From: Candidatus Moraniibacteriota bacterium
Lineage (GTDB): Bacteria; Patescibacteriota; Minisyncoccia; Moranbacterales; UBA2206
DNA length: 64,000 bases
Direction: 5' to 3'
NCBI GenBank assembly: GCA_049297495.1
Contig: JBAQUL010000005.1
Location: forward strand, 3,868-67,867
Shown here piece after piece: positions 23,763-59,569 of the stretch. The notes beneath the pieces were generated by a model. The model was given only the letters and a program-made list of their open reading frames with translations, searched no databases and was not told the origin of the DNA. Numbering within the stretch: position 1 is the first letter of the stretch; the number at the start of each line of letters is the position of its first letter. Both the position numbers and the translations under genes were made by a program.

Positions 23763-23776
23763 AACACGCTCATTGA

Positions 23777-24343: not shown

Positions 24344-24372
24344 AGTAATATCGCCAGTTAAGTTATTTTATA

Positions 24373-27157: not shown

Positions 27158-27199
27158 AAATCCATTAGCGTCTATCGACAAAAACATTCTCAAAATACT

Positions 27200-27634: not shown

Positions 27635-27786
27635 AATTTCACCCACCTTTCTAGTTTGCCTCTAAGTCACCAATAAGTAGATGACTAAAAGCATTATTTT
27701 TCCCACTAAATTCCGCTCTAGTCGGGTACCAGCTTCGCTGGACTTAGTAAGATTATTTCCTATGTAAAATCAAATCTTAATTCTTT

Positions 27787-28158: not shown

Positions 28159-28192
28159 AATTCACCCGCCTTTCTAGTTTTAAAAATCTTTT

Positions 28193-29416: not shown

Positions 29417-29507
29417 CCATTTTTTTTATTTTTCAGAAATTTCCAGTCTTATGACTTTTTTATTATACCATCATTTCAAATAAATAGAAAATTCAGTAAC
29501 TTCTCAA

Positions 29508-30578: not shown

Positions 30579-30584
30579 AAATGT

Positions 30585-30974: not shown

Positions 30975-31003
30975 AAAATTATAGTTAAAAAATAAAAATA
31001 TAC

Positions 31004-33465: not shown

Positions 33466-33470
33466 ATTTT

Positions 33471-33983
33471 TTATTTAATCGTTAAAACAACAGGGAAATT
33501 AATCATCCTTCTTTTCGCATCAAGCTTTGTCTCCCCTGCAAGGACAGTTGAAAAATAGTCATCCCCCTTAAAGCTCAAAATTTGCTTTGCCACCGTGTCA
33601 TAACTGTCAGCAAAGCAATCAATCTTAATTATCTTGGCCGCTTCATCATAGGTATAGGATTCAAGATATACGCCATCAATCATCACACTTTCGATATTTT
33701 CCAGATCCCTCCCATTATCCCGTTCCATTGCAAGAAGCTCATTTGAAATCGTCAATCTATTTTGAAAATCCAAAACTTTTTTGGAATCGCCAATGGTAAA
33801 CATATTAAATTTAGCCGCATACTCTTCTTTAGCAGTCGCTAAATCGGTCCCCAGCTTATTCCCATAAAAAATCATTCCTCCATAAATCAGCAAGACAACA
33901 AAGAATATCACTAAGAGAACAGTAGTGCCTGTTCCAAGCATTTTCGTATTTTCTCTGTCTGTAACTAAATTTATATTTGCCAT
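33471..33983 (-). CDS. pilN: PilN-like pilus assembly protein
   Basis: 170 aa; single TM segment plus a periplasmic domain. Confidence 0.6.
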   Translation of the reverse strand: MANINLVTDRENTKMLGTGTTVLLVIFFVVLLIYGGMIFYGNKLGTDLATAKEEYAAKFNMFTIGDSKKVLDFQNRLTISNELLAMERDNGRDLENIESVMIDGVYLESYTYDEAAKIIKIDCFADSYDTVAKQILSFKGDDYFSTVLAGETKLDAKRRMINFPVVLTIK

Positions 33984-34072
33984 TTTATTATTTCTACCTC
34001 GCTAAATTCGTCACTCATTCTGGACGACCCTGCCCAAAAGCAAGTTCAGCGAAATATCTTAAATTGTTTTAA

Positions 34073-35833: not shown

Positions 35834-38800
35834 TTAATGAGAAATCTCCTGCCAGCCTCCTGAATTACAAGGACAATAAATCGTTCCCGTGCAAGAAGTT
35901 GCGAGACATGGTGGAACACCACATCCAGGTGGAGCAACAGGAAGACATTCTTCATTTTGAACTCCGCAAACACCAGGAGTGCAAGTGGTCGGGTAGTAAC
36001 ATTGAGGAGTCATTGAGCAAGAATAATATTCACAAATTCCGCTTGCACCAGTGCAAGCACCAAAAGTTGCTTTGTTTGTCCATGGTTGCAAAGAGCTAAA
36101 ACCCGTCTCTTGAGTTCCTGGGCATTTTGTTGTTCCTGCTGGTGGAGTGACTGGATTACAACCAAATGTTCCAGCTGGAGTATAATATTCACAAATTCCG
36201 CTCACTCCCGTGCAAGCGGCAAGAGTTCCTTTGGGGGTCCATGGTTGAGCAGAACTAAAGCCTGCTTCTCGAGTTCCAGGACATTTTAGCGTTCCGACTG
36301 GTGGAGTGACTGGATTACAGCCGAATGTTCCACTAGGGATGTAATACTCGCACATTCCAAGCACCCCGGTGCAAGCAGCAAGAGTTCCCCGATTTGTCCA
36401 GGACTGAGGAGAAATAAATCCCGATTCTCTGGTTCCTGGACACTTCATTGTTCCGGTAGGTTGAGTTGTCGGCATGCAAGTGTACGAAGTCGTAGGAACG
36501 CAATGGCAACCATCACAACTTGTTCCCGATGGACAAGGCGTTCCACCACTAAATACCGTACTACATTCACAATCATCATTAACTAACACACTAGCAGAGC
36601 AAGGGGTACCTCTTGTTGCTCCCATGTATGGAGTGAATGTGCAGGTTTCCGTTCCAGTTTGTGAGGCAGTAAAATCAAATGGATAACCAGTAATATTAGA
36701 CAATCCGTAATCACCTTCTGGAATTGTTGCACCGATTCCAGAGCAAGTACCAAGCATCTTATCCGCATTGGAAGGAATCCATGTGAGCCTGGAAGTTCCA
36801 GGAGCGGTTAAACTCGTTGGTGAGAAATTTGCAACACAAGAAGGACTAGCGCAATCTATGGTTGTACTACAAGTCTTATTAGCGCCACCATTCAATCCTA
36901 AACATGTCCATCCCCACCATGTGCCAGAATATACCGTCGGCGCTCCTTGTAATGTACCCAGGGTGCAAAGATTACTAGTTGGCGCTAAACAGGAAATTCC
37001 TCCATTCGAAGAACCACAGACTGCATCAGCCCTCACGGAAACTGTTGCTTCGCAAGTAGCGCCTGGAGTTGCTCCATTGTACGGAGTAAAAGTACATACC
37101 TCTGTTCCAGTTTGGTCTACGGTAAAAGGAATCGACCCGGAACCACTGGCAGGATTAGCGACATTCATCGCAGGACTAATCGGCATTGGACCTGTGCAAG
37201 ACACTGTCATTGAATCACCGATGGAATCCCATTCAAGGACAGAACTAGCAGGAGTAGCTGATGTGGTAGTTATATTAGAAGGAGAGAACGAAGCATGACA
37301 TGAAGCTGGCTGGCAACTCTTAGTAGCAGAGCAACTCACGCTACCGCCACCATTAGCCCCCGCACAAGTCCAAAACCATGGACCAGAGCCAGTAACCGTA
37401 GAAGCGGTGCTTGATGAATCACAAAGATTAGCAGTCGGCTGTGTGCATGGGGATGTTCCATTAACAATGCCACAAACCCCTCGTGGCCTCACCAGTACAC
37501 TGGCGGAACAAGGAGTTCCGGCAGTTGCACCAATATATGGCGTGAAAGTACAAGTTTCCGTCCCACTATCCGTCGCGACAAAAGGAAAGGGAAAATTACT
37601 ATAAGACAGACCATAATCAGCCGCTGGAATCGCGCTCCCAATACCAGAACACGCGCCAATTGTCCTGTCCGCGTTGGAAGAATTCCAGGTAAGATATACC
37701 GTATCAGGAGCTTGAATGTCTGTGTCAGAAAATGAAACAGTACACGTAGGAGTGGGAATTACCGCGCTGACTACCGCAGAAGCATAACAAGCCGCGCCGG
37801 CCGTTGAACCATTATATGGAATAAACGTGCAACGAACAGTCCCTGTTTGATTCAAATAAATACCAAAGTTAGTGTAGCTGGCAGCGACATTGGGACCGTC
37901 TATGCTTGGCGAAAGTCCGCTGCAAAAAAGCATTCCATGTGTTGAATCATTCGTTGACCAAGTCAAAGGTCCCCAGCTATTAACATTATAGGAGCTAGCA
38001 CTAAAATGAATTTCACAAGTAGGATTGGAGGGAGGAGCAACCGTGTAATAAATATCGCCAGTCGCTAAATCAAAATTGCCACCACCAGATGTTGTGCCAG
38101 AGCAATTAGCGGCAACACCCCCAGAGCCTTCTCCAGTTATACAAGCCTTGAGAGAAATGACACCACTTGACGATGGCGCGTTACCAGCACTCCAAGAACC
38201 AAAATTGCTAACAGTACAACCGTTTTCAGCAGTGAATGCGCTATTGCCCTTCCAGCCAAAATCAGACCAGCTACCCGATGTGTTCGTTGCAGCTAATAGT
38301 GTAGTATTCCCACCAGAATAATTAACGCAACCAGTGAGGGCTGCACTTCCGTCATATGTCACGGATATCGCCTCTCCTGGGATATAAGTTCCTTTATTTA
38401 AATTCACAGAATAACTAAAAGCTCCCCAACTATTAAATGGCCTAGAAAGTGTAAGAGCCTCCACGCTTTGCAATCTCCAACCAAACAAAGCCCCAAACAA
38501 AAGCAAAAGCAATAACAAATTTTCAGTTTTGTTTTTCTTGTAAGAAAAAAGTGTTTTAACAACAATGGCAATCACCAAAAATAACAGGATTATGGATACT
38601 ATCAACAATACTGCTTTCTTGATATTATTTGGACTACTTTTTTGAGTTTCGCCTTCGCTGATTTTATCTTTTTGAAAATGCAAGTCTCTTTCCGCCAAGA
38701 CTTTACCTTGTTCATTTTTGAGGGTTATTTTAACATTCGGACTAGAGCAATCAATGTTGGATTTAAGCTCAAATTTAGCTATGTTTGAATTTTGATCCAA

Positions 38801-39928
38801 GGCTTGTCCCTGAATTTGCATGCAGAGTTGATTGGCTTGATTAGCTATTACCAAATCAGCTGTTACTTTTTTCCCAGCTGCATTGCCGATGTGCGAATCA
38901 TTGGAACCATCCACCAAGCCAGACCACAACAAAGTAACATTAATCATTTCGCCTTTTTGATAACTAATTTTATCCAGATCTAGTTTTTGAATCGTGGCAC
39001 TTTCGCCGGAAACAACATAGCGCAAAATTACTGGACGAGCGACAACTGCCAGGGCATTGCTTTTCAAAAAAGTAACTCTCGCTTCGTATGTCTGAGGTGA
39101 AGCGGGCTTATTAATCGTCAGATCGATAAATTTTTTCTCTCCTGGTTGGAGAGCTAGCTCCGCCCCTCGCTGGTCTTTGTCAGCCGAACTACCATAGAGA
39201 GAATGTTTGAAAGTGCTCAATAGAGGATAAACCGAAACAGATTCCTTGAAATGACTGGTAACTTCGCAGCTAAAAATCAAGCCTTCTTCTGGCTTAAGCG
39301 ATACCCCTTGAGGCAATGAATAAACCTTACCATTCCCATCTCCCTCGATTTTTAATCCGCAAGCATCGGTATTGATTTCCAGGTACTCACCAGAACCACT
39401 AAGCGCTATAGGCTTTTCTAATTTTAAAACAGCTAGCGGCAGGCCACTTTCATTTTTGGCTACTAGCCACAACTCAAAATCACCAGAGAGATAACTTGGA
39501 GCCTGGTAAGAAAAAACTTTTTGAGTAGAACTATTTCCCTCAATTGAAAGCACATCGGCGGAATACACTCTCTCGTCATACAACGTCTCATCCTTAATCA
39601 ATTGCACACCATAACGAATGCCGGCTTCGCTTTTGGAATAATTATTTTCCAAGCGGAAATAAAGATCTAAATTATTATTTTCTTGTTTTAAAAGAAGGGG
39701 GTCGCGAAAATTGATATCAGCAACAACATCCATCTGTTCTGACGCGATCGCCCCTCCTGGCTCGCGCTGTATTTCCAGAGCACTATCAGTGGGAGTGTTC
39801 GTTGAAGATTCCGCGGCGGCGACTGATTGGCCAAAGAAAATAAAAGATAACATGCACGCCATTACCAGGCCCTCATTTAATTTTTTTTTCATCTTTTTGT
39901 TTTGTAAGAAGTTGCCCCTCAACTTCAT
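35834..39928 (-). CDS. giant Cys-rich surface protein (1364 aa) with an N-terminal signal peptide, a mid-protein membrane hairpin and a C-terminal repeat array
   Basis: Signal peptide (MKKKLNEGLVMACMLSFIFFGQSVAAA). TM helix around aa 432-455, then a second hydrophobic segment (LLLLLLLFGALFGW) 14 aa later. C-terminal modules: CTFTPY(I/N/M)GAT.GT.C.A(S/T)V.V three times, CPGT(R/Q)E.GF.S.Q.WT.K.T..ACTG..G.CEYY three times, and ANLC...GPW.WTC.G.NGG motifs. Confidence 0.7.
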   Translation of the reverse strand: MKLRGNFLQNKKMKKKLNEGLVMACMLSFIFFGQSVAAAESSTNTPTDSALEIQREPGGAIASEQMDVVADINFRDPLLLKQENNNLDLYFRLENNYSKSEAGIRYGVQLIKDETLYDERVYSADVLSIEGNSSTQKVFSYQAPSYLSGDFELWLVAKNESGLPLAVLKLEKPIALSGSGEYLEINTDACGLKIEGDGNGKVYSLPQGVSLKPEEGLIFSCEVTSHFKESVSVYPLLSTFKHSLYGSSADKDQRGAELALQPGEKKFIDLTINKPASPQTYEARVTFLKSNALAVVARPVILRYVVSGESATIQKLDLDKISYQKGEMINVTLLWSGLVDGSNDSHIGNAAGKKVTADLVIANQANQLCMQIQGQALDQNSNIAKFELKSNIDCSSPNVKITLKNEQGKVLAERDLHFQKDKISEGETQKSSPNNIKKAVLLIVSIILLFLVIAIVVKTLFSYKKNKTENLLLLLLLFGALFGWRLQSVEALTLSRPFNSWGAFSYSVNLNKGTYIPGEAISVTYDGSAALTGCVNYSGGNTTLLAATNTSGSWSDFGWKGNSAFTAENGCTVSNFGSWSAGNAPSSSGVISLKACITGEGSGGVAANCSGTTSGGGNFDLATGDIYYTVAPPSNPTCEIHFSASSYNVNSWGPLTWSTNDSTHGMLFCSGLSPSIDGPNVAASYTNFGIYLNQTGTVRCTFIPYNGSTAGAACYASAVVSAVIPTPTCTVSFSDTDIQAPDTVYLTWNSSNADRTIGACSGIGSAIPAADYGLSYSNFPFPFVATDSGTETCTFTPYIGATAGTPCSASVLVRPRGVCGIVNGTSPCTQPTANLCDSSSTASTVTGSGPWFWTCAGANGGGSVSCSATKSCQPASCHASFSPSNITTTSATPASSVLEWDSIGDSMTVSCTGPMPISPAMNVANPASGSGSIPFTVDQTGTEVCTFTPYNGATPGATCEATVSVRADAVCGSSNGGISCLAPTSNLCTLGTLQGAPTVYSGTWWGWTCLGLNGGANKTCSTTIDCASPSCVANFSPTSLTAPGTSRLTWIPSNADKMLGTCSGIGATIPEGDYGLSNITGYPFDFTASQTGTETCTFTPYMGATRGTPCSASVLVNDDCECSTVFSGGTPCPSGTSCDGCHCVPTTSYTCMPTTQPTGTMKCPGTRESGFISPQSWTNRGTLAACTGVLGMCEYYIPSGTFGCNPVTPPVGTLKCPGTREAGFSSAQPWTPKGTLAACTGVSGICEYYTPAGTFGCNPVTPPAGTTKCPGTQETGFSSLQPWTNKATFGACTGASGICEYYSCSMTPQCYYPTTCTPGVCGVQNEECLPVAPPGCGVPPCLATSCTGTIYCPCNSGGWQEISH

Positions 39929-40123: not shown

Positions 40124-42613
40124 ATGACCAGAAAAAAAATCGACAAAAGAATGCCTCACTTGGAACCGAGCTTTCATGATATTTTGATTTGCAAAAAAAA
40201 TGATTGTCGCCCATTTATTGAAATACTAATCGAAGAACCAGAAAATATTTCACATCATAATCTGGGGACGCTGATGGGAATTTTCCAGATCGACGACAGA
40301 AGCGAGGATTCCTCCTATGTTGTGAATTACCTAATTTCCATCATTAAGAAAGAATATTTTTCCCGCGCCAATCGTGGTCCCGTTGAAAACTTTGAATCAG
40401 CTCTACACAAGGCCAACCTTGCCCTCGCCAAACTTGCCACGCATGAAAATATTGGCTGGATTGGGAGCATCAATGCTATTTGCGCTGTAATTGAAAAAAA
40501 TAATATTCTCCTCTCTCAAACCGGAAATGCCTCAGCTTTTCTTTTGCGCGGAAACACCTTCACCGAAATTACTGAAATTCAAGATGGAACTATCGATTCC
40601 AACCCCCTAAAAACGTTTCAGGACGTCATTTCAGGAAAAATCGAAAAAAATGACAAGCTACTACTCACTACGAAAGAAATTTTTGACATTTTTTCCCTGG
40701 AAGAAATCAAAAAAAGCGCACTCAAATTTTCACGTGAAAATTTCATCCAATTCCTAAATACCGCACTCGTCAACGAACTTGACCAGGTAGCCTCTCTCGT
40801 TATCGACATAGACGAAAAAACTGATGAGTTCCCCGAAACCCCACCAACTCCAAGAAGAGAAGATGTGAATGTTTTTAGTCAAACTGCCTTTCAAAAAGAA
40901 CTTTCTCCTAAAATATTAGAGAAAGAAAGGGCTAAGGAAGATATCTTGAGAAAAGAGCGGCAAGAAATAATCCAAGAGCTCAAAGATGAGGCAAAAGATT
41001 TTGTCGATAAAAAAACTGGACATATCTACATAAAAGAAGCTCACAATGCGCCCAAAGAAGCTCAGATTGAAAAAATTGAATTCGACCCACTCCCCTTTTT
41101 CAAGGAAAAATTCTCTGGCTTAAGACACTCTAGTGCAAAACTGCTCAAAAATGCAACAAGCATACTAAAAGATCAATCTGCTTCACTTTGGGAGAAAAGC
41201 CGCGCTAAAATCTCTCAAATTAAAGTTAAAAAAACTCCTCCAGAAATTGAGTTTTTAGACCGAAAGACTGAAAAAATCGATGAACCAAACACAGTCTTCG
41301 CTCAGACTGAGCCAGAAATCACCCCACTAGAAAGATTAAGCCATGCATATTCCAAACTAGAAATCAAAGCAAGAACCGAATCACTTGTAAAAAAAATCAA
41401 GCCAGGATTTGAATGGTTAGAAGAAAAAACTGCTGATGGATTAATTCTTATCCTGAGAAAGCCCACCAATCTCACCATACAATTGATTGAATCGCTGAAA
41501 AACAAATGGCGCAACCACAAAATTAAAAACCAAACCGAAATAAAGACCCAAGGATACCCCTGGGAAAACTCACCGGTCTCGTCTGACATAGGCCTCCAAA
41601 AAATCGCGACAACACCTCTGCAAAAAACCACAAATCTCGGTCAATTCATCGAGCCCAAGAAAATCCTGCCAAATTTTTCTCGTCTGAAACAAATCTCCAA
41701 AAGCCTTGATCGAAAACAAAAGCTATCAGCTTTGGCAGCGTTAGTTCTTCTTTTGGTTGTCCCATATTGGATCGTAAAATTAGAAAACAGAGAAATCGAG
41801 AAAAAACCGGAAATTGTCGAAGAAATCCCCGCAGTCATACTGCCACTGGAAAATGACTTGAACGTCCAACGCATTGAAAAACTAAACGAGATCTACGGCG
41901 GAAGTGTCTCGCGAATCATAAATCTCAACGATAAATTTTTCGCCCAAAAAGACTCCGAGATTATTGAGCTGGAAACGAAGAAAAGTTTTCCCCTTTCTCC
42001 AGATTTCCAAAATCCGGAATTATCGCTCGGAATGGACGATTTGAATTTAATTTTCATTGTTAAGAACAATAAAATCATATCCCTCGCGCCTACTTCAGGA
42101 AAATTCCAAGCCAATTCCATTGCGTTTCCCGAAAAAGCTAAAATAGCTGATGCCAAGACCTATCTTACCTATCTTTATTTGCTCGATGGAGCAAATAACC
42201 AGATCTATCGCTACCCAAGAGCTGAAGGCGGATTTGGCGAAAAAAACACCTGGCTAAAAGAACCTCTAGATCTATCCAATGCCAAAAGCCTCGCCATTAA
42301 TGAAAATATCTTCATTATAAATGGCCAAAGTATCATCAAATTATTTCGCGGAAAGAATCAGCCCTACATGCTGGAAAAAACCGCAACGCCCATCTCGCCA
42401 GATAAACTCAGTACCCAAAATGCTAGCACCAACCTATACATCCTAGATAAAACTAACTCGAGAATAATAAAACTGGACGGTGAGGGAAAAATTCTGGCCC
42501 AATACTATAATGCGGAAATCACCAACGCAACTGATTTTTCCGTCAGTGAAGAAAATAGCTTGGTTTATATCTCAGATACAAATGGAGTAAAAAGCTTCGC
42601 AATGAATCAATAG
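40124..42613 (+). CDS. large hypothetical protein with a mid-protein TM segment; the N-terminal domain weakly resembles PP2C/SpoIIE
   Basis: 829 aa; coiled-coil region, a TM helix around aa 535 (LSALAALVLLLVVPYWIV), and a C-terminal beta-rich domain. Confidence 0.45.
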   Translation: MTRKKIDKRMPHLEPSFHDILICKKNDCRPFIEILIEEPENISHHNLGTLMGIFQIDDRSEDSSYVVNYLISIIKKEYFSRANRGPVENFESALHKANLALAKLATHENIGWIGSINAICAVIEKNNILLSQTGNASAFLLRGNTFTEITEIQDGTIDSNPLKTFQDVISGKIEKNDKLLLTTKEIFDIFSLEEIKKSALKFSRENFIQFLNTALVNELDQVASLVIDIDEKTDEFPETPPTPRREDVNVFSQTAFQKELSPKILEKERAKEDILRKERQEIIQELKDEAKDFVDKKTGHIYIKEAHNAPKEAQIEKIEFDPLPFFKEKFSGLRHSSAKLLKNATSILKDQSASLWEKSRAKISQIKVKKTPPEIEFLDRKTEKIDEPNTVFAQTEPEITPLERLSHAYSKLEIKARTESLVKKIKPGFEWLEEKTADGLILILRKPTNLTIQLIESLKNKWRNHKIKNQTEIKTQGYPWENSPVSSDIGLQKIATTPLQKTTNLGQFIEPKKILPNFSRLKQISKSLDRKQKLSALAALVLLLVVPYWIVKLENREIEKKPEIVEEIPAVILPLENDLNVQRIEKLNEIYGGSVSRIINLNDKFFAQKDSEIIELETKKSFPLSPDFQNPELSLGMDDLNLIFIVKNNKIISLAPTSGKFQANSIAFPEKAKIADAKTYLTYLYLLDGANNQIYRYPRAEGGFGEKNTWLKEPLDLSNAKSLAINENIFIINGQSIIKLFRGKNQPYMLEKTATPISPDKLSTQNASTNLYILDKTNSRIIKLDGEGKILAQYYNAEITNATDFSVSEENSLVYISDTNGVKSFAMNQ

Positions 42614-42630
42614 CTAGTATCTTTTAAAAA

Positions 42631-42666
42631 ACAGGAACGGAGCTCATGGCTCGTTCCTGTTTTTTC
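42631..42666 (+). terminator. Rho-independent terminator
   Basis: ACAGGAACGGAGCTCATGGCTCGTTCCTGT followed by TTTTTT, a perfect 11-bp stem. Confidence 0.8.
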
Positions 42667-42685
42667 ATTAGTTTTATTTTTATCT

Positions 42686-42826
42686 CACGACTTACGCGTT
42701 TGTCAAAGAATTATTCGCACGCACAGCCTATTTAGCTGAAAAAGCCTTTGGTAAACCAGCAGTAAATAAACCAAAATGAGGAAGCGTCGCTTTCAAGAAT
42801 AATTATTTGGCAAACACGTAAGTCCT
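42686..42826. mobile_element. MITE-like element copy 1 (about 140 bp with roughly 22-bp terminal inverted repeats)
   Basis: 5' CGACTTACGCGTTTGTCAAAG and 3' TTTGGCAAACACGTAAGTCCT are inverted repeats. Same family as copies at 49543-49690 and 59411-59557. Confidence 0.55.
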
Positions 42827-42861
42827 ATATCTATAAATAACCGACGATAAATAAGCATTTT

Positions 42862-45321
42862 CTAAAATCTCGTCCGGGCGATGATTTCCTGATTGACGAC
42901 ATGTCGATCTCGGCCAAAAGTCAGACGAGACAGCTCCTTGATTGCATTAGCCACTTCCTGATCGCCTCTGGTCGGAGGAAAGCCCTGGATATTGAAAGGT
43001 TTGGTCAGTACGCCGTCAATTAGAACTTTCGCAAACCCTTTGTGATTATCCACATTCACTAAATCATTCTTTGAAAAAGTCGGCGCCACCTGTTTCTCCA
43101 GAAATTCCGCGTCTTCCGGACCGACGCGATAAAGAATCATAGAGCCAATATTGCCAAACACGGCCTTTGAAATCTCTTCCTTGAGTTGAGCGATAAATTG
43201 ATGAGCGATATTGAGACAGAGTCGATATTTTCTCGCTTCGCTGAGAATTTGGGCGATAGAATTGGTTGTCACATTTTGAAACTCATCAAGATAGAGATAA
43301 AAATCCACGCGATCATTCTCTGGAATATTAGTACGCGCAAGCGCTGACATCAAAATTTTTCCCACAATCACCATGCCCAAAAGTCGCGCGTTAATTTCCC
43401 CAATCTTTCCCTTGGAAAGAGCCACGAGTAGGATTTTCTTATTATCCATGATATCGCGAAAATTAATCGTGCTTTTTTGTTGAGAGATAATCGGACGCAT
43501 CATGTCATTGGAAATAAACGGAGTCAGTTTGGAGGTGATATAGGGCACCATATTGGCCAGTGCCGCTTCACCTCCGGCTTTTTCCGCTTCTTTGGTCCAA
43601 AAATCTATCACTGTCTGATTGGTACATTTGGAAAGTTTCATGGCGCGAAAATCCTCATCCGCCATCACCTTGGAAATTTCCATTAAAGTTGATCCTGAAT
43701 CCGGGTCGCTCATCACGAGAAACATCGCATTACGCATATATTGCTCAAACATCGGTCCACCAGTCGCTTTGAGATCATAGAGTTGATCAAAAATGCCAAT
43801 CATTTCGTTGATCACAAAGGTCATCTGCTCCGGATAGGCCGGATCATATTCCAGCATATTAAGCCCAAATGGCCGCTCAACATCCGATGGGTCAAATACA
43901 ACCACATCTTGTGCCCGCTCCTTAGGAATGCAGGCCAAAATATCCTCAATCGCATCGCCATGCGGATCAATAAAGCAAAAGCCCCGCCCTTCCTTGGCAT
44001 CCTGTTTGGCCATTTCTTGCAAGATAGTCGTCTTTCCTGTTCCAGTTTGACCAATCGCATAGAGATGCCGCCTGCGATCACTCTCAGTTAAACGAATATC
44101 CGTCTTTGCTCCACGATATTCATTGAAGCCGATAAGCACGCCTTCCGTAGGAATCCCGACCGGTGGTGGGGCAGCGTTCGCTTTGAGCCATTTAATTTTT
44201 GGTGCTTCGGTGGTGGAGATGGGAATGTGAAAAATACTGGAAATCTCTTCCACACCAAGAATCATTTTTTCTTCCGATTTAAAATTACGGAAAATAAAAT
44301 CAAAAGCAATCACTTTTTTATTTTTTCTTTGCACTTGAAAACAGTTTATATCCGCATTTTCATATTGCGCGAAAGCATTCTCAATATGCGCTAAGATTTC
44401 CTGGGCCCGCTCACTTGTCGCAGCTGACGTTACCAAGCGAATATTGGTTTCAAATCCAGTCTTTGAGGCTTTTTTTTCAATCCCCTTCACCAACTCTTGT
44501 TCTTCTGGAGTAAGCTGCACAGTTTTTTTGTCCCCCGACAGTGGATCATCTTTTTTCCCTGGAGTGATAATGGATAGCGCCGCAGAACCAAGTTCACTTC
44601 CCACTTTTGCCATAAAAGATTTATCCACGTCACGTAGTCTTTTCCCTTGCTGCATCTCGTGAGCGATGCGCCGCCCTTCCGCCCGCCAAGCTGTCCCAGC
44701 TGGACGCAAGACCAATTGGATAGCTGCTCCCTCGCTTACCGTGTCAAGCTTGCTGAGTGCATTAGCAATAGCATTCAGTGGATCCATTTCTTGATTTTCA
44801 TAGGTACGAATCGGCAAAGCAAATTTATTTTTCAACTTAATAATTGATGCCTCGGTCTTACTCCCAGGAAAGAAAATATTAAAATCGGTTGTCTTTTCCA
44901 AGGATGCATATGGAAAAAAACTATGAATCTGCTTTTCTATATTTTCCCTAAATTTTCTTGGCACCGCAATAAAAAAAACGATTTCCTCATTCTTAGAAGA
45001 ATTGGCAATCTCCAATGAGATTGCGGGTGAGCCATACAGTAATTTTTTGAAAAAACTCCGAGTATCTCTGATTGAGGAAAAAGCCGTGAGCATTTGCTCC
45101 ATCGCTCCAATCTCGCCCTTCCAATTCTCTCCTTCCTTAGTTTTCTCCTCCTCACTCTTATTGATTTTTGAAACGCGAATCACATCAAGATCCAAATTCA
45201 TTGATTGATTAACCTGAGCGCGAAAACCTAAAAAGCTTGACACAACAAGCCAAGCACCACTAAACAAAGTCGCTATTCCTGAGACCAAAAGTACGATATT
45301 AATTAAGCTAGAATAATCCAT
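42862..45321 (-). CDS. TraD/VirD4/TraG-family P-loop ATPase (type IV coupling-protein-like) with an N-terminal TM segment
   Basis: 819 aa; Walker A AIGQTGTGKTT, FIDPHGDA, Walker B YLYLDEFQNV, and the ...NIAHQF motif. Confidence 0.55.
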   Translation of the reverse strand: MDYSSLINIVLLVSGIATLFSGAWLVVSSFLGFRAQVNQSMNLDLDVIRVSKINKSEEEKTKEGENWKGEIGAMEQMLTAFSSIRDTRSFFKKLLYGSPAISLEIANSSKNEEIVFFIAVPRKFRENIEKQIHSFFPYASLEKTTDFNIFFPGSKTEASIIKLKNKFALPIRTYENQEMDPLNAIANALSKLDTVSEGAAIQLVLRPAGTAWRAEGRRIAHEMQQGKRLRDVDKSFMAKVGSELGSAALSIITPGKKDDPLSGDKKTVQLTPEEQELVKGIEKKASKTGFETNIRLVTSAATSERAQEILAHIENAFAQYENADINCFQVQRKNKKVIAFDFIFRNFKSEEKMILGVEEISSIFHIPISTTEAPKIKWLKANAAPPPVGIPTEGVLIGFNEYRGAKTDIRLTESDRRRHLYAIGQTGTGKTTILQEMAKQDAKEGRGFCFIDPHGDAIEDILACIPKERAQDVVVFDPSDVERPFGLNMLEYDPAYPEQMTFVINEMIGIFDQLYDLKATGGPMFEQYMRNAMFLVMSDPDSGSTLMEISKVMADEDFRAMKLSKCTNQTVIDFWTKEAEKAGGEAALANMVPYITSKLTPFISNDMMRPIISQQKSTINFRDIMDNKKILLVALSKGKIGEINARLLGMVIVGKILMSALARTNIPENDRVDFYLYLDEFQNVTTNSIAQILSEARKYRLCLNIAHQFIAQLKEEISKAVFGNIGSMILYRVGPEDAEFLEKQVAPTFSKNDLVNVDNHKGFAKVLIDGVLTKPFNIQGFPPTRGDQEVANAIKELSRLTFGRDRHVVNQEIIARTRF

Positions 45322-45490
45322 AATCTTGAACTATGATTTTTATGATTATCAACAAATTTCAAAATCCTAATATCAAATTTCCAATCAAGTCTTAAATTCA
45401 AATGACAAAATAATTTTCTGGCTTATTTTCTTGGATTTTGAATTTTGGTTTTTGTTTGACATTGAAAATTAGAAATTGAAAATTAATCCT

Positions 45491-45931
45491 TCATTCTTCT
45501 GTTATCATTCCCTTCTTTACCAACGCGTCATGCAAATCTGTCGCCAGGAGTCGATCATGCAATTCGTCAAGCAAATAATTATCCTCCATGTGTTGTGCCA
45601 CCTTGACTGCATGCACAACACCCTTCGCCTCAGCCAATTCGACTAATTTTATAATTTTATTTTCATAATCCGTCCCTTCGCCAGCTATTTTGGCGTCCGT
45701 CGAAACATCATTTTGGGCCACAGGATTCGAACTTTTCACCTTGGCAAGAATCTTGGCATAGGTGTCATCACGCTCCACCTTTCCCTCTTTCCTTTCCGGC
45801 GCTTCTGGGGTAGGAATAACTTCTGGGTCATCCTTGGGCGAACTGGACACAACACTCTTTTCACCCTCGGGACCACCTTTTAAGAATTTATTTTTCAAAT
45901 CCAAATCTCCATCTTCAATTGGCTCTAGCAT
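45491..45931 (-). CDS. acidic hypothetical protein
   Basis: 146-aa ORF, D/E-rich. Confidence 0.4.
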   Translation of the reverse strand: MLEPIEDGDLDLKNKFLKGGPEGEKSVVSSSPKDDPEVIPTPEAPERKEGKVERDDTYAKILAKVKSSNPVAQNDVSTDAKIAGEGTDYENKIIKLVELAEAKGVVHAVKVAQHMEDNYLLDELHDRLLATDLHDALVKKGMITEE

Positions 45932-46102
45932 ACGTTTTAGCTTAATTGTTTATACTGGTTTATCAAAAATATCATTATTTACATCATCCCTTTGAAAAAT
46001 ATAGTCAGTAATTTCCATTTTTTATCCAAAACGCACAGCTTCAATTCGAAAATTAAGAAATTTAAGCATTGTTTGGAAATTGGAAATTGGAAATTTCTCC
46101 CC

Positions 46103-46402
46103 CTACTCCACTTTCTTCATTTCTTCTTTGAAATCAGCAATAATCTTTTGCACCATTTCATCATAATTCAATACCTTTTCCTTCAGAAATTCACCGATTT
46201 TCTCTGGTTCGCTTTTTTCATCAACCATCTTCTCATACATCTCACGATCTGCCTCACTCAATCGCTCCATCGTTTCCACAAAGATTCTTTTCAAAAGCAC
46301 TTCCGTCATTTTAATCAGAATCTCATTTTGCTTATCCAGTGGAAGATTGGAAAGCCCCAATTCTTCCATTAGCTCTTTTTGCAATTGATCTTGATCAACC
46401 AT
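46103..46402 (-). CDS. small hypothetical protein
   Basis: 99-aa helical, E/K-rich ORF. Confidence 0.35.
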   Translation of the reverse strand: MVDQDQLQKELMEELGLSNLPLDKQNEILIKMTEVLLKRIFVETMERLSEADREMYEKMVDEKSEPEKIGEFLKEKVLNYDEMVQKIIADFKEEMKKVE

Positions 46403-46484
46403 TTTATTTTTGTTACCGCCAAATAATTCAGCGAGTAAGATTAATTTTTTAAATTGAACTTTTTTTATTTTTTAGCAAAGAAGC

Positions 46485-49367
46485 CTATTTTCCGCCACGA
46501 TCTAACAACTTAAAGTTTTTATACTCCACGCCACCGGCTTCAAGCGATGATTTGATCATTCTAGTCGTCCAAGAAAACATATTCTCTCCGGGAAGCGGAT
46601 TGGAAAAATTAGTTCCAAATTGTTTAGCAACGTATCCTTTTAATTCCACAATCTTTGAGCTCTGCCCATTTTCGCTACCCAAAAATTCGGCCGCCCCAAC
46701 AGCTTTTAGCCCCGCTACTCCACCCTCAATTTGTTGTCCCGCAAAAGTCTCTCTGGCAAGCGAATTAAAGGCCTTGGCGTAGGCTTTTTCATAACCACCT
46801 TTGGCTGATTCGAGCGCTGCCGCCCTTGCGCCACTAACATCATTAGTATCACTTACAGCTCTCGTATACGCCTCTTCCGCCGCAGCCTTTAACCTGCCAA
46901 GATCTAGTAATTCCCCTCTGTGTGATTGCATGGATTCTGGCATCGACTGAATATTTCTCAATATCTCAGCACCACCCTTGCCATACACTTTTTGATATTC
47001 ATTATTTAATTCTTGATGCATGCGATCTCCATCGGCCGAAGCATGTGATTGCGCATTTGAGTTCGGACTACTATTTTCTACACCTTCTTGCGCACGCACA
47101 CCACTATCAACCGAGCTGGAATGAGGTTCCACATCTGGCGCTACACCTGCTGAGACTGGTGCTTCTGGAGTAGGACTGACATCTGGTCCGACTGGCATCA
47201 CTTTTTCGACCGAAGGCTGATGAACTTCCGTTCCTCCTGCAGGCACATCCGGAGTGTTAACATGCGCACCAAGGATGCGGTCCACTTTGACAGTTCCTTT
47301 CTCCCAATCAACAATAACCTTTTGCCCCGGTTTGATTTTACCCAGCTCCTTAAGAGTTTCTTCATTATCAGGATTTGACGCTATCTGATGAGCCAATGTT
47401 TCTGCGTCATGAGGGCTCATGCCTTCTGCAATTTTCTGATTTATCATTATCCTCTCGACACTGTCACCCTTTGCCGCGACATACTCAGAGGCACCTTGCG
47501 CTGATACTGGCGCCTCAACCGAGCTAAACCTATCACCATCAGACGCTCCAGCATGCGTCGCTTCCATTTTTGGATTGAATCTGTCACCATCGGACGCACC
47601 AGCGTGTGTCGCTTCATGAGCAGAATCCGCATGATCAATAGGATTTGTGCCGACTTCAACCGGCGCCGGTTCACTAGCAAAAGCTAATCCTCCAGATTCG
47701 TCTGCGCCGCCCACATTCACATGTTCCCAAAGACTAGTTGCACCATCTTTCATTAGACCAAAACCCTTCCCGATGAGCCACCCTGCTGCCCCCGATCCTA
47801 CAGCAACAGCAACACCCGCCCCGATCAATTTTCTGTTTCTCGCTTGACTCTTCTCTTTTTGCAAACCATCATGATAAGTCTTCATTTCCTTACCACAATA
47901 TTCATTAAGCGCCTGAATATGTTCTTGAAGACTTCTTTCCACATTTCCCATCATCTCATTCTTGTCTTTTCCCGCTTTTTTGTTCACTTTATTCCTTGAA
48001 CGCGCCTCTAGCCCTGCCGTCACACTAGTGCCAAGCACTGCGCCACCAAGCCACCTTCGAACCAGATTAACGCCAGTTACACCAGCCACAGCTACAGCCG
48101 ATCCAGTGAATGCAGCATAACCTCCAGCTGCAAAAAGAGCTACCGCAATACCTGTTTTTATTCTTGGATCCAGCGTACGGTACTTATTAATCAATTCTGC
48201 GCCTATCTTCAAAGCTTTCTCGCCAAATCTTCCCATCTTCGTTTCTGACCAGGATGCTGTTCGCGCATCCGTCCTTGCTCCCGCCAAATCAAGTTTCTCG
48301 GTGAAGCCAAAATATGTTGCCATGTCACCCATCTCTTTTTTCATTTCCGTCATCGCCGCCGCTTTTTCCGCTGGTGGCAAACTATCCATGTTGGCATATT
48401 TATCTCGCATCGCTTGGATTTGCAAATTCCGCAACTCATTTAATGCTCCTTGATATTGCTGATAAGCAAATGAATCTTTGGCGCCAGTTGGCAAATTTTC
48501 AGTCTTCATACCCAGCACACTTTTGAGCTTTGTGAAAATATTCGTTGTTCTATAATCCTCAGCGGCATAACCTTTTCTTTTTTCTTCTACTAAAATTCTC
48601 AGCTCTTCGAGCTTGCCAAGCTTTTCTTTTTCTTCAGGACTATAAGCAGCATCTTTCTCTTCGCCCATCTTAAACCGACCATCATCTTTTTCCTCTATGC
48701 TCTTGCCAATTTTTCTGCCCATATTTTTCCGAGTCTCTCTCTTAGCGTCGGTCTTCTCTTTTTCTCCAGCAGGAATGATATCTCCAATTTCTCCTTGATA
48801 AGCGGCAAAAGCGCCTTCCTGCATCCCATCATCCTCTCTTCTTATAATATCCGCTTCAGGCTTAACACCCTCAGCTTTTTTCTTGCCAGTATCGCCAGTC
48901 TCTTCTTGGTAGGCCGCAAAAGCGCTTTCTTGCATTTCATCATCCTCTCTTCTGATGATATCTGCCTTCGCATCAATACCTTTCGAGACTGGATCAGTTT
49001 TTGTCCCACTTTCAACATCCTCCACCTGATAAGCTGCGAAAGCATTTTCTTGCATATCATCACCATCTCTTCTGATGTGATCCATCTTTGCATCAATACC
49101 CTTTGAGACTGGATCAGTCACCATCTTCTGCGCATCCTCTCCTTGGTAGGCCGCAAAAGCGCTTTCTTGCATTTCATCACCTTTTTTTCTAATCATATCC
49201 GCTTCCGTATCGACACCCACGTGTTTTTTTTCACCGCCAGCCATTCCCGCTTTTGCCCTAGCAAGTTCAAGCCGCTTTCTTTTTTCCTCAGTTTGAGGGA
49301 ACTCAATTATTTTATTTTTCTTAACCCCAGGTTTGGTCTCTGGCTTAAATGCAAAACTTTCCTTCAT
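46485..49367 (-). CDS. large membrane protein with about 5 tandem 27-aa repeats, Gly/Ala-rich TM helices and a LysM-like C-terminal segment
   Basis: 960 aa; repeats DPVSKGIDAK.D.IRR.(G/E)D(D/E)MQE.AFAAYQ (81-bp DNA tandem repeats at about 48770-49120); TM helices TGIAVALFAAGGYAAFTGSAVAVAG and LIGAGVAVAVGSGAAGWLIG; LysM-like ...GDSVERIM...LGKIKPGQKVIV. Confidence 0.6.
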   Translation of the reverse strand: MKESFAFKPETKPGVKKNKIIEFPQTEEKRKRLELARAKAGMAGGEKKHVGVDTEADMIRKKGDEMQESAFAAYQGEDAQKMVTDPVSKGIDAKMDHIRRDGDDMQENAFAAYQVEDVESGTKTDPVSKGIDAKADIIRREDDEMQESAFAAYQEETGDTGKKKAEGVKPEADIIRREDDGMQEGAFAAYQGEIGDIIPAGEKEKTDAKRETRKNMGRKIGKSIEEKDDGRFKMGEEKDAAYSPEEKEKLGKLEELRILVEEKRKGYAAEDYRTTNIFTKLKSVLGMKTENLPTGAKDSFAYQQYQGALNELRNLQIQAMRDKYANMDSLPPAEKAAAMTEMKKEMGDMATYFGFTEKLDLAGARTDARTASWSETKMGRFGEKALKIGAELINKYRTLDPRIKTGIAVALFAAGGYAAFTGSAVAVAGVTGVNLVRRWLGGAVLGTSVTAGLEARSRNKVNKKAGKDKNEMMGNVERSLQEHIQALNEYCGKEMKTYHDGLQKEKSQARNRKLIGAGVAVAVGSGAAGWLIGKGFGLMKDGATSLWEHVNVGGADESGGLAFASEPAPVEVGTNPIDHADSAHEATHAGASDGDRFNPKMEATHAGASDGDRFSSVEAPVSAQGASEYVAAKGDSVERIMINQKIAEGMSPHDAETLAHQIASNPDNEETLKELGKIKPGQKVIVDWEKGTVKVDRILGAHVNTPDVPAGGTEVHQPSVEKVMPVGPDVSPTPEAPVSAGVAPDVEPHSSSVDSGVRAQEGVENSSPNSNAQSHASADGDRMHQELNNEYQKVYGKGGAEILRNIQSMPESMQSHRGELLDLGRLKAAAEEAYTRAVSDTNDVSGARAAALESAKGGYEKAYAKAFNSLARETFAGQQIEGGVAGLKAVGAAEFLGSENGQSSKIVELKGYVAKQFGTNFSNPLPGENMFSWTTRMIKSSLEAGGVEYKNFKLLDRGGK

Positions 49368-49542
49368 TTTGTTGTTTCTAATTTTTTATAAATATTAAAA
49401 AGATAACTGTGACTTTCACTTGTTTAAATTATACAACAAAAAAACAATTCTTGCTACAAGACAAATAACTTCCTGCTGTGGATAACGTAAAAATATGATA
49501 TACTAATCTTACAATGAATTTAAAGATTAAAAAAAATGATCA

Positions 49543-49690
49543 GGACTTACGCGTTTGCCAAAAATAAGCTTTTCCATAGCCGGGGTTGATTAAAAAAAGC
49601 TTTGGTAGTTTTGGGCGTTAAGATAAACAAAAAACAAACTCTAAGTAACCACGCGCTTTAAAGATTGTTTTTGGTAAATGCGTAAGTCCT
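49543..49690. mobile_element. MITE-like element copy 2
   Basis: TIRs AGGACTTACGCGTTTGCCAAAAA and TTTTTGGTAAATGCGTAAGTCCT; about 75% identical to copy 3 over the whole element. Confidence 0.6.
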
Positions 49691-49716
49691 AATAATAAAA
49701 TAAATATATTAAACCT

Positions 49717-51573
49717 ATGTCAATCCAAAAATTTTTGGAAAAAAACTACAAGCTAGTTATTGGAATCATCCTCGCCTTCATCTTTACGGTTTCCGTCCTG
49801 AACGCTTGGTGGGACAGCGCCATTTTCGATGAAACTGCCCACATCCCTGCCGGCTATTCCTACCTGACAATGCATGACATGCGCCTTAATCCGGAACATC
49901 CACCCCTCCTGAAAGATCTTGCCGCATTTCCTTTGCTTTTTTTAAATTTAAACTTTGATACCACGCAAAATTTCTGGACCACCGATATTAACGGTCAATG
50001 GGTGGCCGGTCACAATCTTTTTTGGCTGAATGGTAACAATTCCGATCTGCTTATTTTTTGGGCGCGCATTCCTTTTGTCCTTCTTTCTCTGCTTTTTGGT
50101 CTGTTTATTTTCAAATGGAGCAAAGAACTCGCAGGAACGCTTGGCGGACTCCTTGCTCTAACCCTCTATGCCTTTGATCCAAACATCTTGGGCCATAACC
50201 ATTTCGTTACAACCGACCTCGGTATTGCCGGATTCATGATGCTGTCCTTTTATTATTTTTTGAAATTCATCAAAGATCCTTCCTGGAAAAATGTCACACT
50301 CGGCGGACTCTTCCTCGCCCTTGTCCAGCTGACGAAATTTTCCTCCATCATGCTCTTTCCAATCTTCGGTCTTGTCGCAGTTATCTACCCCTTGGTTAAA
50401 AAAATTCCCGCCGAAGAAAAGAGTGCTTGCCTTTTTAAACTAAAAAAAATAGGAGAATACTTGGGAAAAAGCATTGTCGCTCTCACTTTTTCGCTCCTGA
50501 TTGTTTGGCTATTTTATGCCTTCAATAATTTCGATATGCCAAAAGAAAAATTAGCTGAAACAATCAACTTCTATTTCACTCCCACAGACACAGAAAACGT
50601 CAAAAATATCTACACCAATAAAGTCCTTCTTGCTCTCAATGAGACAGCCCTGTTTCGTCCGTTATCAGAATATTTCCTTGGTATCGCCATGGTGTTTAAA
50701 AGAGTGGCGGGTGGCAATGGCGCCTACTTCATGGGCCAAGTTTCCAATGCTGCCTTTCCGGCCTATTTCCCAACAGTTTTCGCCCTAAAAGAGCCACTGA
50801 TTATCCTACTGCTCATGCTATTTGCTGCCGTTATCGGTTTTTGGAACAATCTTAAAGCGTTTTTTGATCGTTTCAAGGAATCCGCTCAAAAATCCCCATG
50901 GCTCACGGCGCTTAGCGACTACCTGAGACACAACATTGAAATCCTAGCAATGTTCGCCTTTATCCTGCTCTATGCCTACATCAGCATCACCGGAAATCTC
51001 AATATTGGCTTTCGCCATCTCTTCCCAATCTTGCCTTTTGCCTACATCCTTACTGCCAAAATCATCATCGATTTTTGCGAAAAAAGAAAAAATCTTCCCG
51101 CAAAAATACTATCCTTGTCAATCGTACTTATCTTTTCATTGCTACTTATTATTGAAACTGTGACTGCCTACCCCTATTACATGTCGTATTTCAATCAAAC
51201 CGCTGGCGGACCGAAAAATGGCTATAATTTTGTCACAGATTCCAATGCTGATTGGGGACAAGACCTAAAAAGATTGCAACCCTTCCTTGATGAGCACCCG
51301 GAAATTGATAAAATCCGTGTTGATTATTTTGGTGGAGCAGATATAAAATACTACGTCAAAGATAAATATATCATGTGGTATGACTCCAAACGTCCCCTAG
51401 AAGCTGGCTGGTATGCCATTTCAACCAATTTCCTTCAAGGCAGCATCTATGACGCAACAAAAAAAGACCAAACTACTTATCGCTGGACTCAAAAACTTAA
51501 ACCCCAATATCAAGTAGGAACATCTCTACTCATCTATCACGTCAGTGAGAATGATTTGAAAAACTTGAACTAA
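49717..51573 (+). CDS. GT-C family membrane glycosyltransferase (ArnT/PMT-like, GT39/83-type)
   Basis: 618 aa; the first loop carries the DE motif (AIFDETAHIPAGY), about 12 TM helices, and a C-terminal soluble domain. Confidence 0.65.
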   Translation: MSIQKFLEKNYKLVIGIILAFIFTVSVLNAWWDSAIFDETAHIPAGYSYLTMHDMRLNPEHPPLLKDLAAFPLLFLNLNFDTTQNFWTTDINGQWVAGHNLFWLNGNNSDLLIFWARIPFVLLSLLFGLFIFKWSKELAGTLGGLLALTLYAFDPNILGHNHFVTTDLGIAGFMMLSFYYFLKFIKDPSWKNVTLGGLFLALVQLTKFSSIMLFPIFGLVAVIYPLVKKIPAEEKSACLFKLKKIGEYLGKSIVALTFSLLIVWLFYAFNNFDMPKEKLAETINFYFTPTDTENVKNIYTNKVLLALNETALFRPLSEYFLGIAMVFKRVAGGNGAYFMGQVSNAAFPAYFPTVFALKEPLIILLLMLFAAVIGFWNNLKAFFDRFKESAQKSPWLTALSDYLRHNIEILAMFAFILLYAYISITGNLNIGFRHLFPILPFAYILTAKIIIDFCEKRKNLPAKILSLSIVLIFSLLLIIETVTAYPYYMSYFNQTAGGPKNGYNFVTDSNADWGQDLKRLQPFLDEHPEIDKIRVDYFGGADIKYYVKDKYIMWYDSKRPLEAGWYAISTNFLQGSIYDATKKDQTTYRWTQKLKPQYQVGTSLLIYHVSENDLKNLN

Positions 51574-59292: not shown

Positions 59293-59410
59293 TGATTTAG
59301 CTTTAAAATATTATATCTCGCCCATATATCGACTATACACTAAACAAGGCTTTAAAGCAACCTTTATTAGAAGAGACGCTCCATAGTGGAGCGTCTCTTT
59401 TTATAAATAC

Positions 59411-59557
59411 AGGACTTACGCGTTTGCCAAAAACAAGCTTCCCTATAGCCAAGATTGGCCTGGAAAATTTCAGCAGTCTCGAGAGCTAAAAGAAGCAAAA
59501 GCAAGCTCTGGGCAGTCATGCGCTTTGAAGATTGTTTTTGGTGAACGCGTAAATCAT
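59411..59557. mobile_element. MITE-like element copy 3
   Basis: AGGACTTACGCGTTTGCCAAAAA ... TTTTTGGTGAACGCGTAAATCAT; internal similarity to copy 2 (AAGCTTCCCTATAGCC.., GCGCTTTGAAGATTGTTTTTGG). Confidence 0.6.
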
Positions 59558-59569
59558 TAAAAACTAAAA

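Follow-up and report, generated by a model that had tools for sequence, protein, structure and literature searches.

The Patescibacteria type IV secretion system is described in a 2025 review as essential and unusual (PMC12857230). The study of Quinonero-Coronel et al. (2025, PMC12102498) reports VirB4 in most classes of Patescibacteria and counts 5,713 VirD4-like homologues in 2,918 genomes of this group, of which only 148 are near virB4; the same study leaves room for exaptation of the VirD4-like homologues. A gene that appears to be of this kind is described here from the window, the whole stretch of 64,000 nucleotides that was analysed, which is part of contig JBAQUL010000005.1 of a Candidatus Moraniibacteriota genome (GenBank assembly GCA_049297495.1). 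The gene encodes an ATPase and lies, together with three other genes, between two copies of an element resembling a miniature inverted-repeat transposable element (MITE).

The most probable reading, at roughly 0.7, is that the pair of elements is a product of chance and that the four genes are a vertically inherited cluster with an orphan ATPase of the VirD4/TraD class, a homologue of those of monoderm and archaeal conjugation systems. An earlier reading of the letters and open reading frames (ORFs) without database searches, called here the sequence-only reading, had placed only four minus-strand genes between copies 1 and 2 of the element, and these are indeed the only long ORFs there (819, 146, 99 and 960 amino acids, aa):

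42862..45321, minus strand: ATPase gene, 819 aa
45491..45931, minus strand: gene of the 146-aa acidic protein, no family match
46103..46402, minus strand: gene of the 99-aa acidic helical protein, Pfam DUF5663
46485..49367, minus strand: gene of the 960-aa large membrane protein, apparently fast-evolving

The ATPase and its relatives in conjugation systems

The ATPase contains one predicted N-terminal transmembrane helix (residues ~3–41, with the hydrophobic helix at 1–33), a DUF8128 N-domain (residues ~40–395) and a P-loop domain of the coupling-protein type. The Walker A motif GQTGTGKT occupies residues 424–431, the Walker B motif contains D679 and E680, and a helical insert comprising residues ~499–612 is seen in the structural model. 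The GQTGTGKTT, DEFQ and IAHQF motifs and the N-terminal hydrophobic helix recognized in the sequence-only reading are all present. In an alignment of 51 sequences G424, G427, K430, D679 and E680 are invariant, together with the SEARKY and AHQ motifs. The AlphaFold2 model of the whole protein has a predicted local distance difference test (pLDDT) score of 87.8 and a predicted template modelling score (pTM) of 0.79, and residues 38–395 modelled alone reach a pLDDT of 90.1.

Two coupling-protein families of Pfam match above their cut-offs, TrwB_AAD_bind (PF10412) with 29 bits against 20.5, and TraG-D_C (PF12696) with 27.5 against 22. An NCBI entry from an 83.8-kb contig, under the name “TraM recognition domain-containing protein”, has 100% identity to the protein. 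The family is large, with 21,144 clusters at 50% identity for E ≤ 1e-3 and 5,346 for E ≤ 1e-30. All of the 120 best relatives share 70% or more of their residues with the ATPase, and those that are named come from Moranbacteria and Parcubacteria. Some family members are 1,400–2,000 aa long (for example P0183–P0188 and P0193) and carry the DUF8128-ATPase unit at the N-terminus, followed by a long C-terminal extension.

When the family profile was compared with solved structures, the best matches were TrwB (3e-8) and DotL (2e-6), with HerA at 1e-3 and no match to FtsK. The grouping with TraD/VirD4 coupling proteins rather than with HerA or FtsK, as proposed from the letters, is therefore upheld by this comparison. 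The Foldseek search gave 2e-12 for TrwB against 1e-10 for HerA. Superposition of TrwB-deltaN70 on the C-terminal domain of the ATPase yields a template modelling score (TM-score) of 0.63–0.69, normalised to TrwB, over ~415–460 columns. TrwB of R388, DotL and Cag-beta are the closest solved sequences, and share with the ATPase the P-loop domain with its helical insert and the N-terminal membrane anchor. However, the identity to these proteins is only ~14–15%, and the ATPase has an additional N-domain of ~350 aa that TrwB lacks. Classical coupling proteins have two transmembrane helices, while one is predicted here.

In a translated search of plasmids, full-length relatives with 21–27% identity turned up on Bacillus, Streptomyces, haloarchaeal and Sulfolobus plasmids. 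On a 27.5-kb plasmid of B. subtilis (NZ_CP154917.1) the relative is an 885-aa “DUF87” protein, whose gene lies just upstream of the one for a Replic_Relax relaxase; the other members of this operon include a TcpC-type protein and an AAA_10 VirB4. From this position the 885-aa protein probably acts as the coupling protein of the plasmid. The hhalign comparison of the candidate phyla radiation (CPR) family profile with the 885-aa protein gave a probability of 100% and an E-value of 5.5e-54 over 656 columns (73–785), the N-domain included, whereas with the AAA_10 VirB4 of the same operon, which served as the VirB4 of the sequence comparison, the probability was 3%. Because of this end-to-end match, as opposed to 3% for VirB4, the ATPase is placed with the ATPases that occupy the coupling-protein slot of monoderm conjugation systems. 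The window protein and the 885-aa protein are homologous in both the N-domain and the ATPase domain and are similar in length and domain order, but their identity is ~22% and the plasmid gene has relaxase, TcpC-type and VirB4 neighbors that the window gene is without.

The N-domain has a different set of structural neighbors. Its only significant matches among solved structures are 14 chains of TrwK/VirB4 (from R388), with E-values from 5e-7 to 7e-5 and TM-scores of 0.41–0.46; the next match has an E-value of 3e-3 and a TM-score of 0.16. By this one method, which compares models, the DUF8128 N-domain looks like the N-domain of VirB4 in its fold. Taken together with the plasmid comparison, the models suggest that the coupling-protein-slot ATPases of monoderm conjugation systems carry a VirB4-like N-domain as a group.

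The ATPase is one of the orphan VirD4-like genes reported earlier from Patescibacteria (PMC12102498), with which it shares a chromosomal location, coupling-protein domains, a position away from virB4, the lack of a relaxase and a wide distribution. What that paper provides in its available sections is a count of these genes, with no description there of the DUF8128 N-domain and its VirB4-like fold, the 146-aa partner or the four-gene cluster.

The gene cluster and the proteins encoded beside the ATPase

Loci of relatives (designated by L numbers) were fetched around ATPase homologues of 97% to 38% identity. The features adjoining the cluster in the window are the following:

40124..42613, plus strand: gene of an 829-aa protein, no family match, convergent on the ATPase gene
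42626..42665, no strand assigned: two-way terminator-like hairpin (A-run, GC stem, T-run), a reading of the sequence, between the 829-aa gene and MITE copy 1
49717..51573, plus strand: PMT_2-family glycosyltransferase gene, divergent from the 960-aa gene

In relatives the cluster is bounded upstream by the PMT_2 gene, which is conserved there. Most of them also have the 829-aa gene as a syntenic neighbor, with a spacer to the ATPase gene that varies in content. The 829-aa protein gave only weak matches of the beta-propeller type. To reach the terminator-like hairpin, the 3' end of an ATPase transcript would have to read through copy 1 of the element.

In L003, where the ATPase is 85% identical, the order is GT4, GT4, DNA polymerase III delta', an FtsQ-type POTRA protein, PMT_2 on the opposite strand, and then the cluster, comprising a 1080-aa protein, DUF5663, a 147-aa protein and the ATPase, followed by an 846-aa gene on the opposite strand. 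It corresponds gene for gene to the window and contains no end motif of the element. Identities between the two loci are 74% for PMT_2, 79% for DUF5663, 59% for the 146-aa protein and 47% for the 829-aa protein, while the large protein is 32% identical and only in its central third. L124, with 71% ATPase identity, has the same gene order and no elements. A metagenome scan anchored on DUF5663 found the four-gene order in 12 of the 15 loci with enough flank, at ATPase identities of 63–93%, usually with PMT_2 upstream and the 829-aa homologue downstream. The sequence-only reading had proposed a search for relatives in which the segment is absent or relocated; L003, L124 and these 12 loci show instead the same order and flanks. 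The four genes thus appear to be a fixed, vertically inherited chromosomal cluster of this Candidatus Moraniibacteriota genome.

The cluster seems to fall into two halves, a stable one made up of the 146-aa protein and the ATPase, and a labile one with the large protein and DUF5663. The 146-aa gene adjoins the ATPase gene in all the Moranbacteria-type loci examined (ATPase identity of at least 63%), except for an extra small gene in L138 and L140, and the large protein and DUF5663 are missing together in L005, L123, L139 and L140.

The 146-aa protein has 165 homologues, the named sources of which are Moranbacteria, the Parcubacteria group and the Patescibacteria group; many of them are on contigs equal in length to contigs with ATPase homologues. 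The 99-aa protein matches DUF5663 with 34 bits against a Pfam cut-off of 23.7. Both small proteins are acidic, as had been noted from their translations, with an Asp and Glu content of 22% and 26%. The literature search found no mention of DUF8128 or DUF5663.

The 960-aa protein differs in several respects from its first description. Instead of the 27-aa tandem repeats reported there, it has four acidic repeats of 37–40 aa at residues ~45–200, with AFAAYQ at positions 70, 109, 149 and 186; these were found by a repeat search and a motif scan, and were missed by Tandem Repeats Finder. The Gly/Ala-rich hydrophobic segments are present, at residues 407–436 and 514–533. They lie within a conserved central region (~245–533), the only part that stays alignable, and the C-terminal part is variable. 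The supposed LysM-like end has no Pfam LysM match even at E ≤ 10, for either the whole protein or the excised region. A LysM-like pattern, KGDS...PGxxI, does occur, and is conserved among homologues, but it is located at residues ~640–700 and not at the end. A cell-wall-binding role is accordingly unsupported, and of the DNA or protein translocation function proposed for the locus there stands the part carried by the ATPase, at the level of homology through its coupling-protein relatives, and not the part that relied on LysM.

The 960-aa protein has no match in Pfam, NCBIfam, PADLOC or PHROGs, and none among solved structures, whether used singly or as an 18-sequence profile. A word-based search returned six homologues, compared with more than 7,396 for the ATPase. 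The protein seems to evolve very fast, and some relatives have lost it.

Several other features of the locus were observed. L001/L002 (positions 2092–9140) have the large protein and DUF5663 in inverted orientation, and in L001 both PMT_2 and the 829-aa homologue are missing from the adjacent positions; L142 (3072–8535) has unrelated genes downstream (EamA, cellulase, YkuD). The spacer between the ATPase and 829-aa genes (42614–42861 in the window) is a variable slot. It is occupied by a MITE in the window and in L152, in L005 by DUF3276 together with a DNA methylase gene and another of 338 aa, by DUF3276 in L123 and by a DNA_pol_B_exo2-like gene in L124; L141 has it empty, with a 69-bp spacer containing a terminator, and in L003 it holds two small genes of unknown family. 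A 131-aa gene is wedged between the 146-aa and ATPase genes in L138 (9548–9943) and L140 (9566–9961); it is selfish-looking, being of the 23S_rRNA_IVP family in one of these relatives and PDDEXK_3 in the other.

The spacers between the cluster genes in the window are unusually long (~170 bp, as against 20–45 bp in relatives) and are filled with AT-rich repeats of the GGAAATT/TTGGAAA type, which occur at 45344–45478, 46050–46096 and 11075–12654. A 56-nt piece of the first of these (45354–45409) is 80% complementary to 12165–12220, inside the ORF of an NAD-dependent DNA ligase, where the translation reads as a Lys/Asn/Ser-rich segment resembling an insert in the adenylation domain.

Proposed role of the cluster and competing explanations

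In the proposed mechanism, the ATPase would form a membrane-bound, ATP-driven ring, which would recognize a macromolecular substrate and drive it to the membrane or through it. Its partner is most probably the Patescibacteria type IV secretion system, the genes of which would lie elsewhere in the genome. Since no relaxase is encoded nearby, a role other than conjugation is suggested. The 146-aa and DUF5663 acidic proteins may act as adaptors or chaperones, and the hypervariable large protein could be a membrane partner or a cargo, exposed to selection by host or phage.

A number of observations weigh against this reading. The NCBIfam equivalog models for TraD, TrbC and CD1115 score only 18–36 bits against cut-offs of 250–800. 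Profile scans of the 64-kb window revealed no VirB4, VirB6, VirB8 or relaxase, and no relaxase or type IV secretion channel genes were found in the flanks of the relatives either; because VirB4, VirB6 and relaxase are missing from the window, the link to type IV secretion is one of family only. Synteny is not absolute, as the flanks are rearranged in L001/L002 (92% ATPase identity) and L142 (94%). The roles given to the partners are deduced from adjacency, charge and rate of change. Finally, according to PMC12102498, the VirD4-like homologue of Ca. Southlakia epibionticum, possibly not of the DUF8128 type, is not essential for epibiotic growth, while other type IV secretion genes of this organism are.

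Two further ideas, independent of each other, go beyond the reading of an orphan coupling-protein homologue, and together they must be considered unlikely. According to one, the four genes form a dedicated export pathway, in which the coupling-type ATPase, with the acidic 146-aa and DUF5663 proteins as adaptor and chaperone, would recognize and deliver the large membrane protein, which might be a host-interaction effector or a surface organizer of these epibiotic bacteria; export could make use of the Patescibacteria type IV secretion system or be independent of it. According to the other, the DUF8128 family, joining a VirB4-like N-domain to a VirD4-like motor, would be a surviving intermediate between the VirB4 and VirD4 classes of ATPases.

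It is quite unlikely that the ATPase is a housekeeping DNA translocase, engaged either in chromosome clearance in the manner of FtsK or in DNA uptake as the motor of the type IV pilus and competence machinery encoded nearby. Both FtsK and the coupling proteins are ring translocases, related to each other, and the very high sequence conservation of the ATPase is typical of core genes. Its conserved neighbors include FtsQ (POTRA_1), MreB and DNA polymerase III delta', and a complete type IV pilus cluster lies at ~17–35 kb of the window. However, searches of Pfam, NCBIfam and solved structures gave no FtsK/SpoIIIE match. In the distant relative L125 the gene follows a ribosomal-protein operon, and the division-gene neighborhood is therefore regarded as lineage-specific synteny. 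As to DNA uptake, a cultured Patescibacterium for which transformation through ComEC is not essential is reviewed in PMC12857230, where functional interaction with ComEC is argued to be ruled out as the reason for the essentiality of the type IV pilus and the type IV secretion system.

The pilus cluster itself (17214–35209) encodes the prepilin peptidase PilD, several N-methyl pilins, PilC, the ATPase PilB and a PilT-like one, PilM/N/O and a response regulator. After it comes the gene of a 1364-aa protein (35834–39928) with no family match, and this gene contains three 159-nt tandem repeats at 36020–36496.

The resemblance of the N-domain to VirB4 raises the question of whether the ATPase is a divergent VirB4, the core ATPase of type IV secretion, and the cluster its own minimal secretion apparatus. 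The arrangement of a transmembrane helix, a ~350-aa N-domain and a C-terminal ATPase in ~820 aa is like that of VirB3-VirB4 fusions, the N-domain alone matches only VirB4 chains, and TrwK/VirB4 structures are the best full-length Foldseek matches (E 2e-14), although the full-length TM-score to VirB4 is only 0.28–0.30. The sequence comparisons, on the other hand, decide for the coupling proteins, with TrwB and DotL as the nearest solved sequences, hhalign probabilities of 3% and 100% for the Bacillus AAA_10 VirB4 and the relaxase-adjacent ATPase, and coupling-protein domains above cut-off where neither Pfam AAA_10 nor CagE_TrbE_VirB matches. Homologues of VirB3, VirB6 and VirB8 were not detected in the window. 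A divergent VirB4 is consequently held to be improbable.

It is very unlikely that the cluster serves as a module of anti-phage defence, or that it came from a phage or plasmid and now resides in the chromosome. The ATPase does match PADLOC mad8 (E 1.2e-10) and, weakly, the HerA models, and its full length is covered by a match to phrog_5156 (E 1.4e-83), a PHROG of unknown function; on 11 IMG/VR contigs (L126–L136) there are relatives of the ATPase domain at 26–39% identity, and in some relatives the slot downstream of the ATPase gene contains a DNA methylase or a PDDEXK gene. However, the fixed position of the locus and the high identity across its best relatives are unlike patchy defence islands, the other three proteins have no PADLOC or PHROGs match, and the neighborhood contains no genes for an integrase, a relaxase or phage structural proteins. 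A defence system was rejected as the reading, as only the ATPase has PADLOC matches, these being weak, and the locus is fixed.

The paired elements and the significance of the locus

The window contains three copies of the element:

42686..42827, plus strand: MITE copy 1, 142 bp
49541..49691, plus strand: MITE copy 2, 151 bp, in the spacer that separates the divergent 960-aa and PMT_2 genes
59410..59558, plus strand: MITE copy 3, 149 bp, outside the segment between copies 1 and 2

The 20-nt end motif, allowing up to 3 mismatches, matches the window at 5 sites where 0.02 are expected, and these mark the three elements. Hairpin folding gives z = -5.7 and -5.9 for copies 1 and 2, and -4.5 to -5.9 for all three copies. 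The end motif and the hairpins bear out the two MITE-like elements of the sequence-only reading. The terminal inverted repeats are ~22–27 nt long on elements of 142–151 bp that contain no ORF, and no Rfam match was found at the elements. Copy 1 has the termini CAC-GACTTACGCGTTTG ... CAAACACGTAAGTC-CTA, and the ends common to copies 1 and 2 are GGACTTACGCGTTTGCCAAA and its complement.

The identity of copies 1 and 2 is 64%; their longest exact common run is 14 nt, and little is alike beyond the ends. Copies 2 and 3 are 73% identical, the right end of copy 3 being degraded. Support for a common orientation of copies 1 and 2 is weak: aligned forward, their interiors score above every one of 200 shuffles, which is not so when they are aligned in reverse. 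A perfect target-site duplication (TATCT at 42681–42685 and 42828–42832) flanks copy 1, the 5-mers ATGAT and ATAAT flank copy 2, and AAATA and AAAAA flank copy 3, the last two pairs each with a 4/5 match.

Characterized by the end sequence TAGGACTTACGCGTTTG, the paired-end pattern of the family occurs at more than 116 places in species-representative genomes, where the chance expectation is ~0.1 by our estimate. Registration on the conserved ends, among the 116 matches listed, shows a 5-bp duplication at exactly one offset (perfect in 57, 4/5 in 18); perfect duplications were found at none of the neighboring offsets 0, 1, 2 and 4 and twice at offset 5. This registration places the termini at YAG-GACTTACGCGTTTG...CAAACGCGTAAGTC-CTR with a 5-bp target duplication; written out with its target-site duplication of 5 bp, the element reads YAG-GACTTACGCGTTT...AAACGCGTAAGTC-CTR. 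From these features the elements appear to be real MITEs, ~125–150 bp long and intergenic.

As in bacterial MITEs, which are non-autonomous derivatives of insertion sequences, there are terminal inverted repeats, a 5-bp duplication, a hairpin and no ORF, and the elements are multicopy and intergenic. Unlike in the usual bacterial MITEs, only ~16 terminal nucleotides are common between lineages, and no parent insertion sequence was found in the fetched loci: in the 8-kb pieces searched, end-motif pairs 0.4–6 kb apart enclose ordinary genes only. The literature search found nothing on MITEs in this phylum beyond passing mentions, and the family appears to be an undescribed one.

Among the matches listed, the family is present in the CPR lineages Moranbacteria, Kaiserbacteria, Saccharibacteria, Magasanikbacteria, Jacksonbacteria, Taylorbacteria and Paceibacterota, with interiors that differ across lineages and ends of ~16 nt in common. 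It was also seen in metagenome-assembled genomes that carry the labels Cytophagales (one bin, with at least 14 contigs), Poribacteria, Bdellovibrionales and Gammaproteobacteria, labels that may reflect binning. In MITE-rich genomes, pairs of the same element surround single ordinary genes (L032 4747–6255, L044 1431–2983 and L051 2177–3670), which from their translations are a gene similar to glyceraldehyde-3-phosphate dehydrogenase (L032), a glycosyltransferase/NUDIX-like ORF and a membrane-fusion-like ORF. Since element pairs enclose ordinary genes in this way, bracketing arises readily without composite transposition.

The sequence-only reading had proposed that the two copies make the segment a composite mobile unit or a deletion-prone cassette, where same-orientation copies would move the 6.7 kb between them or recombine to excise it. 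In line with this, there are two copies of one family in the same orientation, the half of the cluster with the large protein and DUF5663 varies in presence among relatives, and L001 and L142 show rearrangements on the flanks of the ATPase gene. However, a separate 5-bp duplication belongs to each copy, that of copy 1 being perfect, and the outer 5-mers of the pair, TATCT and ATAAT, mismatch. A composite transposon is unlikely because such a unit carries the duplication outside the pair and not around each member, and recombination between the copies is not indicated, as it would have parted the two flanking 5-mers of each copy. With 64% identity and an exact run of only 14 nt, the copies would be a poor substrate for homologous recombination.

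The distribution of the elements points the same way. The cluster occupies the same place in ~12 relatives without the element, except for single end copies in L138 and L152. In the 24 DUF5663-anchored loci, end motifs near the cluster were found only in L152, at the spacer between the ATPase and 829-aa genes, and L138 has one copy beside PMT_2, with different flanks. L141, the closest relative fetched (97% identity in the ATPase and 84% in the 829-aa protein, on a 4.6-kb contig with the ATPase end only), has no element at the site of copy 1; its spacer is too diverged for an exact empty-site alignment. No element ends are present at the breakpoints of L001/L002 and L142, the variable part of the cluster is not the part that the elements delimit, and no transposase was found among the window genes scanned by profiles or between end-motif pairs in the 116 fetched loci.

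Spacing provides no support for a cassette either, as random placement of three copies in 64 kb puts a neighboring pair within 6.9 kb of each other 52% of the time, and copies 2 and 3 likewise enclose ~9.7 kb of housekeeping genes. Because the position of the cluster is kept in relatives regardless of the presence of the element, the mobile cassette is most improbable. The two elements would instead be independent MITE insertions into intergenic DNA, their enclosing of four genes being a coincidence; the idea of a mobile cassette can be dropped, and the bracketing itself is without significance.

The significance of the locus lies in the reading of an orphan coupling-protein homologue within a vertically inherited cluster. 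The locus adds a large DUF8128 subfamily, whose homology to the ATPase encoded beside the relaxase in monoderm conjugation operons extends from end to end, the VirB4-like look of its N-domain in the models, and the observation that the Moranbacteria ATPase travels with a conserved small partner and usually also with DUF5663 and a rapidly evolving membrane protein. The 146-aa, DUF5663 and large proteins are candidates for adaptor and substrate. The cluster is thus a well-defined example of the orphan coupling-protein genes of Patescibacteria, with candidate partners, and the locus offers a concrete handle on a question posed in 2025, that of the role of the thousands of VirD4-like genes of these bacteria that are far from virB4.

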